Shown: one piece after another, positions 11,545 through 61,547 of the stretch
How the letters are laid out: every line of letters begins with the position of its first letter
How positions within the stretch are numbered: position 1 is the first letter of the stretch
DNA from: an uncultured Candidatus Saccharibacteria bacterium
GTDB lineage: Bacteria; Patescibacteriota; Minisyncoccia; Phycocordibacterales; UBA9973
Assembly: GCA_964527185.1 (NCBI GenBank)
Contig: CAZGOI010000001.1
Span: forward strand, 6,010 to 70,009
Direction of reading: 5' to 3'
DNA length: 64,000 nucleotides
The notes under the pieces: generated by a model
The model's database searches: none
The model's input: only the letters and a program-made list of their open reading frames with translations
What the model was told of the DNA's origin: nothing
Program-made: the position numbers and the translations under genes

Positions 11545-11635
11545 CTGGCGGAGGAGAAGAGATTCGAACTCTTGATGCCGTTTCCGACATACATCCTTTC
11601 CAGGGATGCCGATTCAACCACTCTCGCACTCCTCC
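11545..11635 (-). tRNA. tRNA-Ser (anticodon GGA), CCA encoded
   Basis: Reverse complement GGAGGAGTGCGAGAGTGGTTGAATCGGCATCCCTGGAAAGGAT…GAGTTCGAATCTCTTCTCCTCCGCCA. It has a 7-bp acceptor stem, a long variable arm, the T-loop GTTCGAATC, and anticodon loop CT-GGA-AA. Confidence 0.8.
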
Positions 11636-18540: not shown

Positions 18541-18656
18541 TTTGTTCTGGCGACGGCCTACTTTTGCCTAAAAGACTATCATCGGCGTAGATGGGCTTAA
18601 CTTCCGAGTTCGGAATGTGATCGGGTGTGACCCCATTACCAAATCACCAGAACAAA
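18541..18656 (-). rRNA. rrf: 5S ribosomal RNA
   Basis: Reverse complement TTGTTCTGGTGA…GTCACACCCGATCACATTCCGAACTCGGAAGTTAAGCCCATCTACGCCGATGATAGT…TCGCCAGAACAA. This matches the conserved 5S loop C/helix IV sequence, and the terminal stem pairs. Confidence 0.85.
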
Positions 18657-18782
18657 ATATTCAAATATCAGATACACTCGTCCCGAGTAAACTCGAGGGA
18701 TGATATCTGAAAACTGAATGCTAGAACCCGCCTTCGTTAAAACGAATTCGGGCGAACGCAAAAATATGATTTTCTGATTTCC

Positions 18783-22213
<3,431 letters not shown>

Positions 22214-22448
22214 CCTATTAGGAAATCTGAAAACCATCCCGACTCCGTAAAACGGAGGGGGACGACATTTTGCAAAATAGGAACCGCTTCCAAATTTTTG
22301 CACCATGTCTTAAATCATTGCGTTCTGTCTGCAACCCGATAAAAGACCCTAAAAAAATTTAGGATAACAGTGGGTCGCAACAGCATTCAGTTTTCAAATA
22401 TCATGTCGCCCTTCGAATCTCTCAGGACTAGATGTCTCAATAAAAAAA

Positions 22449-25020: not shown

Positions 25021-25198
25021 ATTGTTTTTTAAAATTAAAAAGACCCTTTCGGGCCGTCATATCGTAGAACACTCACGTGTGTGAATCTTCGACCTCGGTA
25101 GGGTCTATTTATGTGTCTCTGGCTTGCGCTCGGGTCCTCTGACTCTGAGAGTCTCGGACTCGAATGAGATCACGACCTACTGTCTACGGCTACCCTGC
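25021..25198 (-). promoter_or_regulatory. Structured 5' leader of rplJL (candidate L10 autoregulatory leader)
   Basis: A roughly 180-nt GC-rich untranslated region between the predicted promoter and the rplJ start, containing several stem-forming segments. Confidence 0.35.
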
Positions 25199-25227
25199 CA
25201 TACTAGCAAACTAGCCTAATTTGTCAA
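25199..25227 (-). promoter_or_regulatory. Sigma70-type promoter for rplJL
   Basis: On the minus strand: TTGACA, a 17-nt spacer, then TAGTAT. Confidence 0.45.
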
Positions 25228-25235
25228 ATAAAAAA

Positions 25236-25254
25236 CCTCCCCGAGGGCGGGAGG
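25236..25254 (-). terminator. Rho-independent terminator after CDS 25473..25817
   Basis: Hairpin cctcccgccctcggggagg followed by TTTTTTATTT on the minus strand; it abuts the -35 box of the rplJL promoter. Confidence 0.55.
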
Positions 25255-25472
25255 CTTCTGATATCTAAGAGAGGCCAAAATTAACTATCTTAGTCGAAAG
25301 TTTACAAAATAAAACGGGGTGTGTCAATACTATTGATTCACACTCCCCGTCGGCTGGGCCTCTTGCGTTTTCGAATCACCTTTTAACGAATCCATAAAAA
25401 CTAGTAGAACTAGCCCTATAACTATAACTATACAAAAATCTACTATAACCTTAAATAAATGTTTGTTCATGA

Positions 25473-40124: not shown

Positions 40125-40697
40125 ATGCTTGAATACAACGAAATACGCGAAAGAAAAATAATTATTTATGAAAGCGAACCTTGCGAGGTTATGGAAAGCC
40201 ACGTTGCGCGGACCCAACAACGCAAGCCACAAAATCAGGTGAAACTGAAGAGTCTGCTTTCTGGTCGCACTTGGAATGCAACATTTCATACTTCAGACAA
40301 AGCTGAAGAGGCTGAGATCACAAAAAAAGATGTAAAGTTTCTGTATGCGAATCGCGGCGAATATTGGTTTTGTGACCCGAACAATCCTCGCGATAGATTT
40401 GAGTTGCCAGAAGAAATTCTCGGCGATTCGGCAAAATATTTAAAGACAAATGAGTTAGCCATTGCTTTGGTCTGGGATAATAGTGGCCAAGACAAGATAA
40501 TCAGCGTCAAGGTTCCGGTCAAAATGGAATTTATCATCAAAGAAGCTCCGCCGGCTATCAAGGGCAATACCGCTTCAGGCGGCGGCAAGACAGCCACGCT
40601 TGAAAATGGAGTAAAAATAACTGTGCCGTTTTTTGTAGAAGCTGGCGACAGAGTCAGAGTCAACACCGAGACCGGAGAGTACGTCGAGCGAGTTTAA
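40125..40697 (+). CDS. efp: Elongation factor P
   Basis: 190 aa with the KOW-like N-terminus and OB domains typical of EF-P. Confidence 0.9.
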   Translation: MLEYNEIRERKIIIYESEPCEVMESHVARTQQRKPQNQVKLKSLLSGRTWNATFHTSDKAEEAEITKKDVKFLYANRGEYWFCDPNNPRDRFELPEEILGDSAKYLKTNELAIALVWDNSGQDKIISVKVPVKMEFIIKEAPPAIKGNTASGGGKTATLENGVKITVPFFVEAGDRVRVNTETGEYVERV

Positions 40698-43120: not shown

Positions 43121-43306
43121 TTATCTTGTGAGTAAATAATCGAGCCCAGACGAGAATAATTTATCAAAAAATCCAAGATAGTACGCAACAAACAAAGAGA
43201 TCGCGAGGACTGCGATTGTGAAAAATAGTGTTTGGTTGCGAGTCGGCCAGGTGACATTTTTCATTTCAGATCTGACTTCTTTTAGATATTCGAGTGTTTT
43301 TGCCAT
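43121..43306 (-). CDS. secE: Preprotein translocase subunit SecE
   Basis: 61 aa with a single TM helix, immediately upstream of nusG; EVRSEMKKVTWP-like motif. Confidence 0.8.
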   Translation of the reverse strand: MAKTLEYLKEVRSEMKNVTWPTRNQTLFFTIAVLAISLFVAYYLGFFDKLFSSGLDYLLTR

Positions 43307-43427
43307 ATTCTCTTTATAAGTTTTCCTATTAAAAAAACCCCGAGGGGCTTGTAGCTAGATACTACTCTTTTGTGTGGGTAATGTCAATTAATATGAAAAC
43401 ACCCTTGATTTGCAAGGGTATTTTTAG

Positions 43428-44219
43428 CTATCTAATTTCGTATGTGATTGTAACACTTGAGGTTATCTTATTCTGCCCTTTAGGAAGCGTTGGGGCCGGA
43501 GCGGTATCGCTTGGAGCTGCGCCCATAGCCTTTGCTTCGTACATGATTGGATACGGAGAATTATTGTTTTCTGTAAAGCTTGTAATCTTACCGAGGTCAA
43601 CGTGTAGTTCGCGCGCAAGTTCTTTGGCCTTGGTTTCTGCATCATCGATTGCTATGCTTCGAGCCTGGTCTTTGAATGTATCTTCATTATCGACGCTAAA
43701 TGTTGGACCACTCATGTCTGTAACACCGATATTTGCAAGACCAGTTTTTATATCGTTGGCAGAATCGACATCGCGAATTTTAACAGTGATAGATTGTGTA
43801 GCGGTGTAGCCGATTATTTTTGACTGGGGCTCGGGGCAAGGGTAGACGAGGCATGCGATGTTGCTATATGAATATTTTGGGTTCAAGCCGCCGTATTCTG
43901 ATTTTATATCTTTGTCATCTATTTTTTTAGATTTTAAATAGTCTAGGGTTTTGGCAGTTCCATCATTAAGATTTGCTTGGGCTTCTTTTGCTGTGGCGCC
44001 ATCTTTAGAAAGATTGATCGAGATCGTAGCGATATCTGATGTGGCCATGACTTCCCCGCTGCCAGTGACAGTGATGATATTTGGTTGTTTGGAATTTGTA
44101 TCATCGTAACCACCTGTTTTTATCTCATTGACCAGCCGCATAAAAACCAGGAGTGATAGCAAAACTATAAAAATGGTACAGACATTGATAAATCTTTTAT
44201 TTGTAAAAATTGTTTCCAT
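43428..44219 (-). CDS. SIMPL-domain (DUF541) secreted protein
   Basis: ITVTGSGEVMATSDIATISINL… at the SIMPL N-terminus; the start was chosen at METIFTNK. Confidence 0.65.
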   Translation of the reverse strand: METIFTNKRFINVCTIFIVLLSLLVFMRLVNEIKTGGYDDTNSKQPNIITVTGSGEVMATSDIATISINLSKDGATAKEAQANLNDGTAKTLDYLKSKKIDDKDIKSEYGGLNPKYSYSNIACLVYPCPEPQSKIIGYTATQSITVKIRDVDSANDIKTGLANIGVTDMSGPTFSVDNEDTFKDQARSIAIDDAETKAKELARELHVDLGKITSFTENNNSPYPIMYEAKAMGAAPSDTAPAPTLPKGQNKITSSVTITYEIR

Positions 44220-56790: not shown

Positions 56791-57036
56791 ATGGCAAAAA
56801 TTTGCGCTGTAACTAAAAAAGGTTCAAAAATGACGGGTGGTTACTCGAACGTTGTTCGTGCTACCAAGTTTAACCCGACTGGCAAAGTCCGCAAATATCC
56901 AAACCTTCAGAAAAAGCGCGTCTATGTGCCAGAACTTAAAAAATATATTCCTCTCACACTTTCAACTGGCGCCATCAAGACTATAAATAAACACGGGGCC
57001 TACAAAGTCCTCAAAAAAGCTGGTGTTATAAAATAA
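56791..57036 (+). CDS. rpmB: 50S ribosomal protein L28
   Basis: MAKICAVTKKGSKMTGGYSNVVRATKFNPTGKVRKYPNLQKKRVYVPELKKYIPLTLSTGAIKTINKHG matches the L28 family. The start was chosen at MAKIC. Confidence 0.8.
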   Translation: MAKICAVTKKGSKMTGGYSNVVRATKFNPTGKVRKYPNLQKKRVYVPELKKYIPLTLSTGAIKTINKHGAYKVLKKAGVIK

Positions 57037-57061
57037 AAATCCCGATTGATCGGGATTTTTA
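57035..57061. terminator. Bidirectional rho-independent terminator (copy 1 of an identical 27-nt element)
   Basis: aaaaatcccgattgatcgggattttta: a perfect 7-bp stem with A/T runs on both sides, between the convergent rpmB (+) and 57059..57700 (-). Confidence 0.6.
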
Positions 57062-57700
57062 TTCTTGAATTCTAAATATTTCTAGAAGTTCTGGGAGTTG
57101 TTTAGTTTCACAAACAAAAACTACTTCTGTCCATGTAGTTATTGTTTCAGTAAGTGAAATCTTTTTTTCCGCAATTTTATGAAGTAAAGAAAAAATAATA
57201 TTTGGTTTGAAATGATATTCCGAACTAATAGAAATACCTATTGCTGAGAGGTTTTTTATTAAGAGTATTGGTTTTGTTTTCATATGAGAAATAACCTTTT
57301 CTGATTTTGATTCACTACATATTATTATAATTGTGCGAGTATTTTGTGAAAAACTGAACCATTCATCAATTCCAGGGGAAATTGCTTTCTCTAAAGTAAC
57401 AAGTTTTTGAGAAATAGAAGGGTTTTTTTCAAATACGATTTCTGATAGGGGTGTTTTCACTGTAATATTGTCAATAACAACTTTTTGTAAAAGCGGATTA
57501 ACGCCTTCAAGTTTTCTGTGGAGACGAGAGAGGGACATAATGATTGTTGTTATTTTTACATTTTTTTTGGTTTTTAATTCAACTTTTTTATGGATTGTTC
57601 TGGAGTAGCTGGAAAGATTGAGTATACCTCGCGACAAGGCAGATATAGCTTCGTGGTCTTTCTTTATTATTTCCTCTACAATAGTTCCAACTTTTATCAT
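57059..57700 (-). CDS. Hypothetical protein
   Basis: A 213-aa AT-rich ORF. Confidence 0.4.
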   Translation of the reverse strand: MIKVGTIVEEIIKKDHEAISALSRGILNLSSYSRTIHKKVELKTKKNVKITTIIMSLSRLHRKLEGVNPLLQKVVIDNITVKTPLSEIVFEKNPSISQKLVTLEKAISPGIDEWFSFSQNTRTIIIICSESKSEKVISHMKTKPILLIKNLSAIGISISSEYHFKPNIIFSLLHKIAEKKISLTETITTWTEVVFVCETKQLPELLEIFRIQE

Positions 57701-57815
57701 GTTATAAATATAACAAATATTTATAATTCACACAAATTATAGTTTTATTTTGTTTTCAGTGACAGAATTTTTATACTAAAAAAGTAAATTTATTGTTCAT
57801 TAAAAAATAAAAAAC

Positions 57816-58118
57816 ATGAGACAGATCATTATTACAGTCGACATGACAAATGGAAATTTAATTTCTATGTCTGAGAAAATCGGAAAGGATTCCCCTATTT
57901 TAATAGAAACTGTAGATGGTTTAAATGGATGGGAAAAATTTAAAGAAACCACATTAGAAGACATTCTAAAGGCCCATAAAATATTTGGTGGAATAAGAGA
58001 GGCGCCAATAGGATGTAGTGGTTATGGAGCAATCGAAGATTTTATTAAATTAGAGATTGAAAATAGGAAACAAGCTACTGTTAAAAAAATTGCTAAATTT
58101 TTCGCTTCTATCCTTTAA
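57816..58118 (+). CDS. Hypothetical protein
   Basis: A 100-aa ORF. Confidence 0.4.
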   Translation: MRQIIITVDMTNGNLISMSEKIGKDSPILIETVDGLNGWEKFKETTLEDILKAHKIFGGIREAPIGCSGYGAIEDFIKLEIENRKQATVKKIAKFFASIL

Positions 58119-58133
58119 TTTTTTAACTCAGTG

Positions 58134-58160
58134 AAAAATCCCGATTGATCGGGATTTTTA
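58134..58160. terminator. Rho-independent terminator (copy 2, identical to 57035..57061)
   Basis: Identical 27-mer aaaaatcccgattgatcgggattttta located 16 nt after the 57816..58118 stop. Confidence 0.6.
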
Positions 58161-58161
58161 T

Positions 58162-58390
58162 TTGACAGTCTATTTTATTAATATAGAATTAAATTGAATT
58201 AGTGAGATTTCATGGTAATCAAGTAGGATTCCGCACTTAGAGTTTCTAAATGTATCTTTACCGAGATATTTTAGAATGCTGGTCTGTCTCAAAAACAGGT
58301 CCACAGTAGGATCTTGCTGTGGTTGCCCCTCCCAAATATAACTTCTCTTAAACAAGGGAGCCCCCTCTGGTTTCGACCGGAGGGTTTTTA
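58162..58390 (+). ncRNA. Candidate small RNA locus (~195 nt) with its own promoter and terminator; identity unknown
   Basis: Promoter: TTGACA (58162..58167), 16 nt, TAGAAT (58184..58189). Plus-strand terminator 58359..58390 (ccctctgg-tttcga-ccggaggg followed by TTTTT). There is no plus-strand ORF longer than 21 codons in between. Confidence 0.3.
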
Positions 58391-59248
58391 ATACATGAGC
58401 TTAACCCCATCGGTTTTAAAAATGATTGTTCCTTTTTGGAATGTTATGAGGTATGGGATGTGCAAGTCATCGAGCCGGTCGATAACTTCTTTGTGCGGGT
58501 GGCCATATTTATTGTTGAGGCCGGCTGAGATTACCGCAACTTGCGGCGAGACATCTTCAAGCCAAGACTCGCTCGAGGAAGTCCGTGAGCCGTGGTGGCC
58601 AAGTTTTAATACCTGTGAGCGCAGCGTCTCTACGGGTTCATTTTTCTCAATTAGCGATTCGGTATAGGCAGTTGCATCACCCATGAGCATAAAAGATTCA
58701 TTGCCATAGACGAGCTTGCCGACTATCGAACCGTCGTTGGTTTTCCAGGTCGAAACGTCGCGGTCTGGGAATAAAATATCAAAATAAATATTTTTATCTT
58801 TATCGAGAACTATCTTCATGCCGCGGCGGGCGATTTCTTTTTTAACTCCATCTTTTGCAATTTCATTTTCGAGTGTTTTGTAGGTTAGTGAACTATTAAA
58901 AGTCCCGGGTTCGAGAATCTCGCCGACTTTATAATTGCGCAAAACGTCGATAAACCCCCCGATGTGGTCGCGGTCTGGATTGGTGACAACGATCATATCT
59001 ATCGATCGGTCGCCAAACGGCATGACCTGCGAGAGCCGCGACAAAACTATGGCGTTCGGGCCACCGTCAACCAGTATCTGCCGGCCGTTCGGGGCTTCTA
59101 TATAGATGGCATCGCCTTGGCCGATATCTAGAAAAGCGACTTTCAGGATATTATTTGGAGTATTTTTGTGGTGGAAATACCAGATGGCCAGGATGCCCAA
59201 GATGGCGAGTATGGCTATATATGGCAGATATTTGCGGAAATTTTTCAT
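58388..59248 (-). CDS. ComEC/Rec2 C-terminal metallo-beta-lactamase domain protein (stand-alone)
   Basis: N-terminal TM helix. MBL motifs: VAFLDIGQGDAIYIE, LVDGGP, and HxHxDH-like NPDRDHIGG. C-terminal GHHGSRTSSS. Confidence 0.8.
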   Translation of the reverse strand: MKNFRKYLPYIAILAILGILAIWYFHHKNTPNNILKVAFLDIGQGDAIYIEAPNGRQILVDGGPNAIVLSRLSQVMPFGDRSIDMIVVTNPDRDHIGGFIDVLRNYKVGEILEPGTFNSSLTYKTLENEIAKDGVKKEIARRGMKIVLDKDKNIYFDILFPDRDVSTWKTNDGSIVGKLVYGNESFMLMGDATAYTESLIEKNEPVETLRSQVLKLGHHGSRTSSSESWLEDVSPQVAVISAGLNNKYGHPHKEVIDRLDDLHIPYLITFQKGTIIFKTDGVKLMY

Positions 59249-60251: not shown

Positions 60252-61547
60252 TCAATCCTTTTTCCACACCCAGACGCCAATGAGGAGATATAGCGCGAGT
60301 GTGAGTATAAGCGGGAATGAAGAAAAATTTAGACTGGCAAATGGCAGGGTCGCAAAGAAGTGAATGGTAGCAAGGATATAGTAGAGTAATAGGTGCGCAA
60401 TGTATGCAAACGGCAAATAAATAATCGATGGTATGAAGCTCAAAATACCAGTGATGAAAATCAAAAACATGGCAAGTGGAATAATCGGCAAGATTAAAAC
60501 ATTGGCCGGCAGTGAGACGAGCGAAAGAATTCCAGTCGAATACAAAAGCAGCGGTAAGGTCGCAATATTTGCCGCCAGTGTTGTAGACACGACTTCGCGC
60601 AAACCAAAGCGCGCAGGTAAAAATCTCATAGCTTTCATAACGTGCGGGGTAATATACAGTACCCCAAACGTTGCAAGGAATGACAATTGAAAAGAAATAT
60701 CAGATAGTATGCGCGGGTCGTAGGCAACCATAATAAAGAGTGCAGTGGCGAGCGCCCGGCCGGCTTCATATTTTCTGCCAGTCAGCCGCCCGATGAGCGC
60801 AATCGAGGCCATGATACCAGCACGAATAGCTGTTGCCCCGCCGCCAGATAAAATTATAAAAAGTATTATAAAAAGTATGCCGAGGCTGACCGAAAAAACT
60901 TGCGTCAGGATTAATCCAAAAACTTTCATCACACCTTCGGCCACAATCGTGATGTTATAACCCGATAAGGCAACGATATGAATGGTGCCGGTCGTAATAA
61001 ATTCGTTGCGCATATTTTGGTCAAACCCGCCGCGGGTGCCGAGCACCAGTCCGAGGGCCAAATCGCTTTCGGGCGGGTTGATTGCGTTATTTATATTTTT
61101 TGAAAACGCGTCTCTAAATTTAAAAAGCCAAGATTTTAAAATGCTCCCATTGCCGTGAGAAATTATTTCGACTTTTGCATTTTCTACAATATAGTAAATG
61201 TCTTGGTTTGCCAAATACCTGATGTAATTAAATTCTTTGCCCGATTGGGTTTCAAAATTTTTCGGCGTCGTTAGGGTGCCATCAATTTTCACCATATCTC
61301 CATAGGAAATTTCTATGTCTTTGTCGGCCACGACTAAAATATTTTCAGAACTATTTTCTGTCTCTACTATAATCCGCTGGTTTGCAAGTCTAATATCGGG
61401 CGGGCTACTGACTACGCCATTGAATGTAATAGCTTTGCCGATGGCACTACTATAGTCTCTCGGCTGCGGTAGAAAAAATAAAAAACGAACGAGGGCTATC
61501 GTCAGGAGTAATAAAATAATAATTATATCACTTCTCCTTAGATGCAT
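60252..61547 (-). CDS. comEC: ComEC/Rec2 competence channel protein (DUF4131 + Competence domain), lacking the MBL domain
   Basis: N-terminal OB-like domain, then the multi-TM Competence domain (…LGLVLGTRGGFD…TGTIHIVALSGYNI…). Confidence 0.8.
   Translation of the reverse strand: MHLRRSDIIIILLLLTIALVRFLFFLPQPRDYSSAIGKAITFNGVVSSPPDIRLANQRIIVETENSSENILVVADKDIEISYGDMVKIDGTLTTPKNFETQSGKEFNYIRYLANQDIYYIVENAKVEIISHGNGSILKSWLFKFRDAFSKNINNAINPPESDLALGLVLGTRGGFDQNMRNEFITTGTIHIVALSGYNITIVAEGVMKVFGLILTQVFSVSLGILFIILFIILSGGGATAIRAGIMASIALIGRLTGRKYEAGRALATALFIMVAYDPRILSDISFQLSFLATFGVLYITPHVMKAMRFLPARFGLREVVSTTLAANIATLPLLLYSTGILSLVSLPANVLILPIIPLAMFLIFITGILSFIPSIIYLPFAYIAHLLLYYILATIHFFATLPFASLNFSSFPLILTLALYLLIGVWVWKKD

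Follow-up and report, generated by a model that had tools for sequence, protein, structure and literature searches.

A possible lineage-specific non-coding transcription unit next to the split ComEC genes of a CPR bacterium

Does the spacer between a duplicated terminator and the stop codon of a convergent metallo-beta-lactamase gene (MBL; Lactamase_B, the ComEC C-terminal domain) give rise to an RNA of its own? A sequence-only reading had proposed a promoter-to-terminator unit without a CDS at this position, a candidate small RNA of ~195 nt. We followed up this proposal with searches for promoters, terminators, RNA structure, coding potential and homologues in the window (the whole 64-kb stretch of DNA that was analysed) and in related loci. 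The promoter, the terminator and their common orientation proved real and better than expected by chance, but conservation and membership of an RNA family were absent and the structure of the RNA body was weak. We tentatively favor an independent, lineage-specific non-coding transcription unit that would specify an RNA of ~190 nt. The coordinates of the features discussed are collected in Table 1.

Table 1. Features of the candidate unit and its surroundings, with examples of a dispersed repeat from related loci.
Feature	Coordinates	Strand	Basis or remark
Low-GC (~25-30%) cassette, two divergent genes, ~1.07 kb	57064..58133		Between repeat copies; context only
213-aa gene	57059..57700	-	Cassette
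100-aa gene	57816..58118	+	Cassette
Bidirectional intrinsic terminator after 100-aa gene; second copy of 29-nt direct repeat	58134..58162	both	100% identity, fold energies
Candidate sigma-70-type promoter (-35 TTGACA, 58162-58167; 16-nt spacer; -10 TAGAAT, 58184-58189)	58162..58189	+	11/12 match
Predicted non-coding transcript, ~190-195 nt	58196..58390	+	Ends inferred from promoter and terminator
Predicted three-way-junction domain, 18-bp closing helix with 5 G.U pairs around two hairpins	58214..58327	+	MFE and centroid agree
Unidirectional intrinsic terminator, 9-bp stem (58363-58384), UUCG loop, U5	58363..58389	+	-15.7 kcal/mol
21-codon ATG ORF (MLVCLKNRSTVGSCCGCPSQI), judged non-gene	58276..58341	+	ORF scan
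25-codon TTG ORF running through terminator	58314..58391	+	ORF scan
61-codon TTG ORF downstream of MBL gene, judged spurious	58170..58355	-	No homologue; uncalled in public assembly
MBL gene, convergent to the unit	58388..59248	-	Lactamase_B
R1/R2 repeat, examples	L004:4862-4964; L014:1116-1218	+	
R1/R2 repeat, examples	L004:5005-5108; L015:4853-4955	-	
R1/R2 repeat, further example	L089:3004-3105	+	
R1/R2 repeat, further examples	L003:548-648; L016:5092-5217; L091:3372-3474	-	

The candidate promoter lies directly after the terminator at 58134..58160, and we confirmed the near-consensus match reported in the sequence-only reading; the first two bases of the -35 box are part of the adjoining 29-nt repeat copy. 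Sites matching at 11 or more of the 12 positions occur eight times on both strands of the window, against an expectation of 1.9 ± 1.4 from first-order Markov random sequences, and a plus-strand site of this quality arose in 0.28% of random sequences with the composition of the spacer (P = 0.0028). At least three other 11/12 sites are located directly upstream of genes (3814->3786, 9647->9620 and 40085->40058), and two genes, with starts at 40125 and 14436, also have TAGAAT as their -10 box, 6-9 nt upstream of the start codon. Judged by sequence match, a chance origin of the candidate promoter is unlikely, and it appears to be of the same type as the gene promoters here.

The position of the promoter is informative because of the unusual architecture of gene starts in this genome. 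A Shine-Dalgarno-like motif was detected at only 2 of the 61 gene starts in the whole window, and for 19 of the 61 genes a -10 box (at least 5/6 match) ends 3-13 nt before the start codon, which points to leaderless or near-leaderless mRNAs; from its sequence the genome appears to be free of Shine-Dalgarno motifs and largely leaderless. Downstream of the candidate -10 box, the reading TTG-AAT-TAG ends immediately, a GTG frame runs for 12 codons, and the first ATG frame for only 4. A promoter of the local type with no gene after it is, as far as sequence matches can tell, the strongest single argument for a non-coding transcript.

The terminators on the two sides of the spacer differ in the strands that they would serve. 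The upstream terminator, real as proposed, is built on a perfect palindrome of 12 nt. It has an A run on one side and a T run on the other, which gives U runs on both strands, and its fold on the plus strand (-13.6 kcal/mol) is as good as that on the minus strand (-13.0 kcal/mol). The downstream hairpin had been described as a strong plus-strand terminator with an 8-bp stem containing a G.U wobble, followed by TTTTT. Its strength, the wobble and the T run stand, but the stem has nine pairs (six G-C and one G.U among them). Its U run (58385-58389) overlaps the MBL stop codon (58388-58390). On the minus strand the same hairpin reaches only -12.3 kcal/mol, the G.U pair becomes an internal C.A mismatch, and the next 16 nt are not U-rich, so for the convergent MBL gene the hairpin does not qualify as a canonical terminator; judged by these sequence features, it is a terminator specific to the plus strand. 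Since L28 and the 100-aa gene already have bidirectional terminators, an additional plus-strand terminator is needed only if transcription starts within the spacer. The next minus-strand terminator past the MBL stop codon is the bidirectional one at 58160-58134, so the MBL mRNA probably has a tail that spans the whole unit, and both strands of the unit may be transcribed.

The putative transcript would start at G58196 or A58197, 7-8 nt past the -10 box, and would end within the U run of the downstream terminator. Folding of the 195-nt plus-strand RNA gave -61 kcal/mol (z = -3.3; none of 200 shuffles as good), compared with z = -1.1 for the minus strand. Without the terminator, the body alone reached only z = -1.8 (12 of 200 shuffles as good), compared with z = +0.2 for the minus strand. 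Much of the fold signal of the whole unit is thus due to the terminator, and the structure of the body is weak, marginal and not significant. The plus strand is nonetheless favored over the minus strand both with and without the terminator, an asymmetry that speaks for the unit. Within the predicted three-way-junction domain, the enclosed hairpins comprise an AU-rich one (~58241-58280) and a 7-bp one (~58281-58302), and the G.U pairs of the closing helix become C.A mismatches on the minus strand. The G+C content of the spacer (39-42%) is not informative as a signal of an RNA gene, as other intergenic spacers range from 30 to 49%.

The sequence-only reading had found no plus-strand ORF longer than 21 codons. 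This holds for ORFs starting with ATG but not for a 25-codon TTG ORF that runs through the terminator. With a maximum of 21-25 codons and no initiation signal, the plus-strand ORFs are what would be expected of a non-coding RNA gene. A small-protein gene, either the 21-aa Cys-rich peptide on the plus strand or the 61-aa ORF on the minus strand, which the sequence-only reading had passed over, is in our judgment very improbable. Both ORFs exist, and a G-rich stretch precedes the TTG start of the 61-aa ORF by 5 nt, but this ORF gave no match at E <= 0.001 among 1.84 billion representative proteins and no Pfam, PADLOC, PHROGs or NCBIfam match. The micropeptide alternative raised earlier fared no better: its ATG is 80 nt from the predicted transcript start, lacks a Shine-Dalgarno motif and is buried in the 3' arm of a predicted hairpin. 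Neither ORF fits a genome in which Shine-Dalgarno motifs are practically unused and promoters adjoin start codons, and neither peptide is hydrophobic like a type I toxin. We likewise rejected a type I toxin-antitoxin locus, as the small ORFs are not hydrophobic or membrane-like by inspection and none has an initiation signal.

We searched for relatives of the unit at the level of RNA families, syntenic loci and viral sequences. At the gathering threshold, Rfam 15 yielded only 23S and 5S rRNA over the whole window and no family at the unit. Relaxing the threshold to E <= 10 over 57700-58700 gave best scores of at most 25 bits, against family thresholds of 40-120, and these belonged to terminator-like hairpins or eukaryotic families. 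The earlier failure to recognize SRP, 6S, tmRNA or RNase P RNA was thereby borne out, none of these matching even at E <= 10. Conservation in related genomes, which the sequence-only reading had suggested checking, was not found: blastn, nhmmer and tblastx searches of 167 syntenic or related loci (~1 Mb) returned no homologue, and exact-pattern scans of IMG/VR did not find the unit. The empty IMG/VR scans led us to reject a phage or mobile origin, and the lack of a second copy in the 64 kb led us to reject a dispersed repeat within the genome. A 21-nt match to one related locus (L102; E = 0.014) lies at a cut contig end, apparently at the start of an unrelated ORF, and was treated as chance. 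The nearest MBL homologue among 5.8 billion proteins is 72% identical; a close relative of the source organism is not yet sequenced. The same locus is known from one other assembly only (Logan SRR12313479), which shows no difference over 6.9 kb and so offers no strain variants for a covariation analysis.

Target searches were also uninformative. RNAduplex predictions at gene starts were long-loop artefacts. Over 17 nt (11 bp contiguous), 58275-58291 is complementary to the region around the start codon of the 100-aa gene; we rejected this match as chance-level, ~10 such helices being expected over the 61 gene starts by our estimate.

The surroundings of the unit are well conserved in order and variable in content. 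In more than 100 related loci the genes follow the order RecJ, RNase H, ComEC (membrane part), SOD (on the opposite strand), MBL, convergent L28, M50 peptidase, S12 and S7. ComEC is split into a membrane part (DUF4131 and Competence; 60252..61547) and the metallo-beta-lactamase part, which are separated by an opposite-strand Fe/Mn superoxide dismutase gene; this arrangement is kept in most of the related Paceibacteria loci examined. The gap between MBL and L28 measures 1351 nt in the window, compared with 27-38 nt in the closest relatives, where the two genes share one common bidirectional terminator. Across relatives the L28/MBL spacer ranges from 13 to 2313 nt, and its contents depend on the lineage (nothing, dispersed structured repeats or extra genes); the spacer is an insertion hotspot. 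Because the spacer in the closest relatives is only 27-38 nt long, the 225-nt spacer that holds the unit is a recent gain, and there is no sign of selection on its sequence.

Most of the remaining gap is occupied by a cassette that can be separated from the unit. A perfect 29-nt direct repeat (AAAAATCCCGATTGATCGGGATTTTTATT), present at 57035-57063 and again at 58134-58162, is a duplication of the L28 terminator, and since its copies bracket the 213-aa and 100-aa genes, the cassette represents one separate insertion at the L28 terminator. The repeat does not include the candidate unit (58163..58387), which lies between its second copy and the MBL stop codon. The duplicated terminator around the cassette is consistent with insertion of a circular molecule that carried the terminator sequence, by a single crossover (Campbell-type), or with duplication of a long target. 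The cassette (57064-58133) has no integrase or transposase, and none of the related loci examined carries it between MBL and L28. The 213-aa family is conserved in Paceibacteria (60 matches, 38-78% identity), where it occurs in other contexts with no similar RNA nearby, and neither the 213-aa nor the 100-aa protein gave a significant match to a defence, phage, Pfam or NCBIfam family. We therefore rejected the notion that the unit and the two low-GC genes form one system (toxin-antitoxin, defence or retron-like), given that the repeat brackets the genes only, that no family matches were obtained and that 213-aa homologues lack a similar RNA. A type III toxin-antitoxin or retron-type RNA was rejected as well: the unit contains no tandem or direct repeats, and its neighbors match no family and are a separate insertion.

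Among the structured repeats in the spacers of relatives, we observed a ~100-nt dispersed element in Paceibacteria, which we term R1/R2. It consists of a 19-bp closing helix, a three-way junction and two hairpins, with conserved nucleotides CG-nAG, a G(A/U)CG loop, CGAG and an AGCA loop. The element is present in 28 copies in ~0.6 Mb, several per 9-kb locus, within the RNase H/ComEC, ComEC/SOD, SOD/MBL and MBL/L28 spacers, in either direction, some of them as inverted pairs. Compensatory changes were found at 34 of 34 pairs, with 95% of cells paired, compared with 39-51% when the partners were slid, in what is a model-fitted alignment. R1/R2 has no Rfam match, our literature searches turned up no description of it, and neither covariance model detected a copy in the 64-kb window. 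It looks MITE-like and selected for RNA (or single-stranded) structure.

Other parts of the window contain signals of related kinds. A second orphan unit (60255->59973, minus strand) has an 11/12 promoter match (TTGACA-16-TAAAAT at 60255->60228) that overlaps the stop codon of ComEC. The next ~220 nt contain no credible ORF, and they are followed by a strong terminator at 60005->59980 on the minus strand (-19.4 kcal/mol, U7), which directly adjoins the stop codon of SOD, the convergent gene. Its fold is better on the minus strand (z = -2.05) than on the plus strand (z = -0.8), and it has no homologue in related loci. The terminator could equally be that of the ComEC operon itself, in which case the unit would be an sRNA of the 3'-UTR type, made from an internal promoter. 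Good minus-strand promoter matches, with minus-strand terminators after them just upstream of genes, occur in other long spacers too, for example 25057-25472 (TTGACA-16-TAGTAT at 25227->25200, terminator 25055->25042) and 43121-43430 (TTGACA-17-TAGTAT at 43387->43359, terminator 43350->43335). These may be leaders, attenuators or further small RNAs; they have no Rfam match. The 23S rRNA match (18545-22220, minus strand) covers 3440 nt, compared with a 2925-nt model, indicating ~500 nt of insertions, and is followed by 5S. No 16S gene adjoins the 23S gene and none was detected elsewhere in the 64-kb window, and the only tRNA in the window is Ser-GGA (11546-11635).

The main rival of the ncRNA reading is that the spacer is non-functional, 225 nt recently acquired at a hotspot, with a promoter-like match, a hairpin that marks the MBL 3' end and a transcript that, if made, is noise. 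The varied length and contents of the L28/MBL spacer in relatives agree with this, as do the uniqueness of the sequence to one genome, the non-significant structure of the body, and the ~2 promoter matches of such quality expected by chance per window. Yet a promoter of this quality in this particular spacer and strand has a probability of only ~0.003, and its placement and orientation are right for the terminator, which has a U tract and a G.U pair suited to the plus strand only. CPR genomes are, moreover, compact, and the closest relatives manage with a few tens of nucleotides. We regard a neutral spacer as unlikely, if still a serious contender. Less likely again is that the region is nothing but the 3' untranslated tail of the MBL mRNA, ending at 58160-58134, with the plus-strand signals incidental. 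The minus strand has no canonical terminator before that point, and the homologous bidirectional terminator is where MBL ends in relatives; however, minus-strand structure does not exceed that of shuffled sequences with or without the terminator, relatives do without such a tail, and the plus-strand promoter and plus-specific terminator would be unaccounted for. The sequence-only reading had itself named as damaging a scenario in which the region is simply the MBL 3' UTR and terminator. The terminator half of that scenario fails, as the hairpin lacks a U tract and carries the C.A mismatch on the MBL strand, but read-through from MBL is probable. An MBL tail across the region is compatible with the ncRNA unit and not exclusive of it.

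A decayed remnant, either an MBL 3'-end fragment left by recombination or a degenerate R1/R2 copy, is quite improbable. Of 200 shuffles, only 1 did as well as the best local alignments of the minus-strand spacer with the MBL 3' ends of two relatives (25 nt for L032, 15 nt for L010). The MBL gene of L010 ends in TGTTTTTGAGACAGA, which is also found on the minus strand of the spacer, and in translation this strand gives PVFETD, which resembles the family C-terminus VFETDG. In favor of a repeat origin, seven loci (L004, L012, L014, L015, L016, L088 and L091) carry R1 elements in the same spacer. Against an MBL fragment, the spacer does not stand out from shuffled sequences when scored with a protein profile built from 120 MBL homologues (282 of 996 shuffles did as well), a DNA profile of 159 MBL 3' ends gives 158 bits on the real MBL end and nothing in the spacer, and the two pairwise matches are not colinear and come from distant rather than close relatives. 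We rejected the MBL 3'-end fossil on these grounds, with some residual doubt. Against a repeat copy, no member turned up in the spacer or elsewhere in the window with the R1 and R2 covariance models, run with filters off; the best score within 58100-58450 is 7 bits, from a plain terminator hairpin, compared with 34-115 bits for members, and we rejected the unit as a member of R1/R2.

The ncRNA reading builds on what the sequence supports directly: the candidate promoter, the terminator, their strand specificity, the lack of a gene and the absence from relatives. The second orphan unit, of the same build and 1.6 kb away, lends it further support. RNA polymerase would start at ~58196 from the near-consensus sigma-70 promoter, and the ~190-nt RNA would end at the plus-strand-specific terminator abutting the stop codon of the convergent MBL gene. 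The tail of the MBL mRNA would run through the whole unit to the terminator at 58160-58134. If MBL reads through in this way, the two RNAs would be fully complementary; and because the only partner that can be named with confidence is the complementary MBL 3' tail, the most likely mode of action would be cis-antisense, acting on the 3' end of the MBL message through RNA duplex formation, interference by convergent transcription, or both. We infer transcription, the transcript ends, the MBL read-through and any regulatory effect from these sequence signals. A bolder proposal, which we regard as a long shot, is that in this CPR (Paceibacteria) bacterium the unit specifies a functional, recently evolved cis-antisense RNA on the ComEC metallo-beta-lactamase mRNA that tunes DNA uptake and that, together with the unit at 60255->59973, it marks the convergent-gene spacers around the split comEC and sod genes as birthplaces of new ncRNA genes in reduced genomes of this kind.

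Our literature searches turned up no regulatory small RNA described from CPR/Patescibacteria. If transcribed and functional, the unit would be among the first described in such a genome, and it adjoins the split ComEC genes for DNA uptake, genes regarded as central to the way these bacteria live. At present the unit is a prediction from one genome, of an ordinary and common kind of sRNA. The more useful by-products of the analysis are the apparently Shine-Dalgarno-free and largely leaderless genome, the L28/MBL hotspot, and the strongly covarying, apparently undescribed 100-nt repeat in the same spacer of relatives.

The candidate belongs to no described RNA family nor to any family that could be built here, and its likeness to known systems is accordingly one of organization. 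It shares with R1/R2 the L28/MBL spacer, occupied by the repeat in several relatives, and a long closing helix around two hairpins, but it has none of the conserved CG-nAG, GACG, CGAG and AGCA-loop motifs; the repeat exists in many copies, in both orientations, whereas the candidate is single-copy in the 64 kb and has its own putative promoter and terminator. The likeness to 6S, SRP, tmRNA and RNase P RNAs goes no further than the range of sizes (6S is ~180-200 nt long) and the predicted independent transcription. Unlike in 6S RNA, the 5' and 3' ends of the candidate do not pair into a rod with a central bubble, and its absence from relatives is unexpected for a housekeeping RNA. Cis-antisense RNAs and overlapping convergent 3' ends, as in the 'excludon' arrangements in Listeria, offer a closer parallel, in that the promoter would fire toward the 3' end of a convergent gene and the complementarity would extend over ~190 nt if MBL reads through. 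The unit differs in stopping exactly at the MBL stop codon, outside the coding region, so that any overlap depends on the inferred read-through. Stand-alone bacterial intergenic sRNA genes have their own sigma-70 promoter and intrinsic terminator. Compared with these, the candidate lacks conservation, no homologue having been found, and has a weakly structured body and a CPR host; it resembles them in its promoter (by near-consensus sequence match), its same-strand terminator, its predicted length of ~190 nt, its lack of a credible ORF, its intergenic position and its predicted stem-loops.
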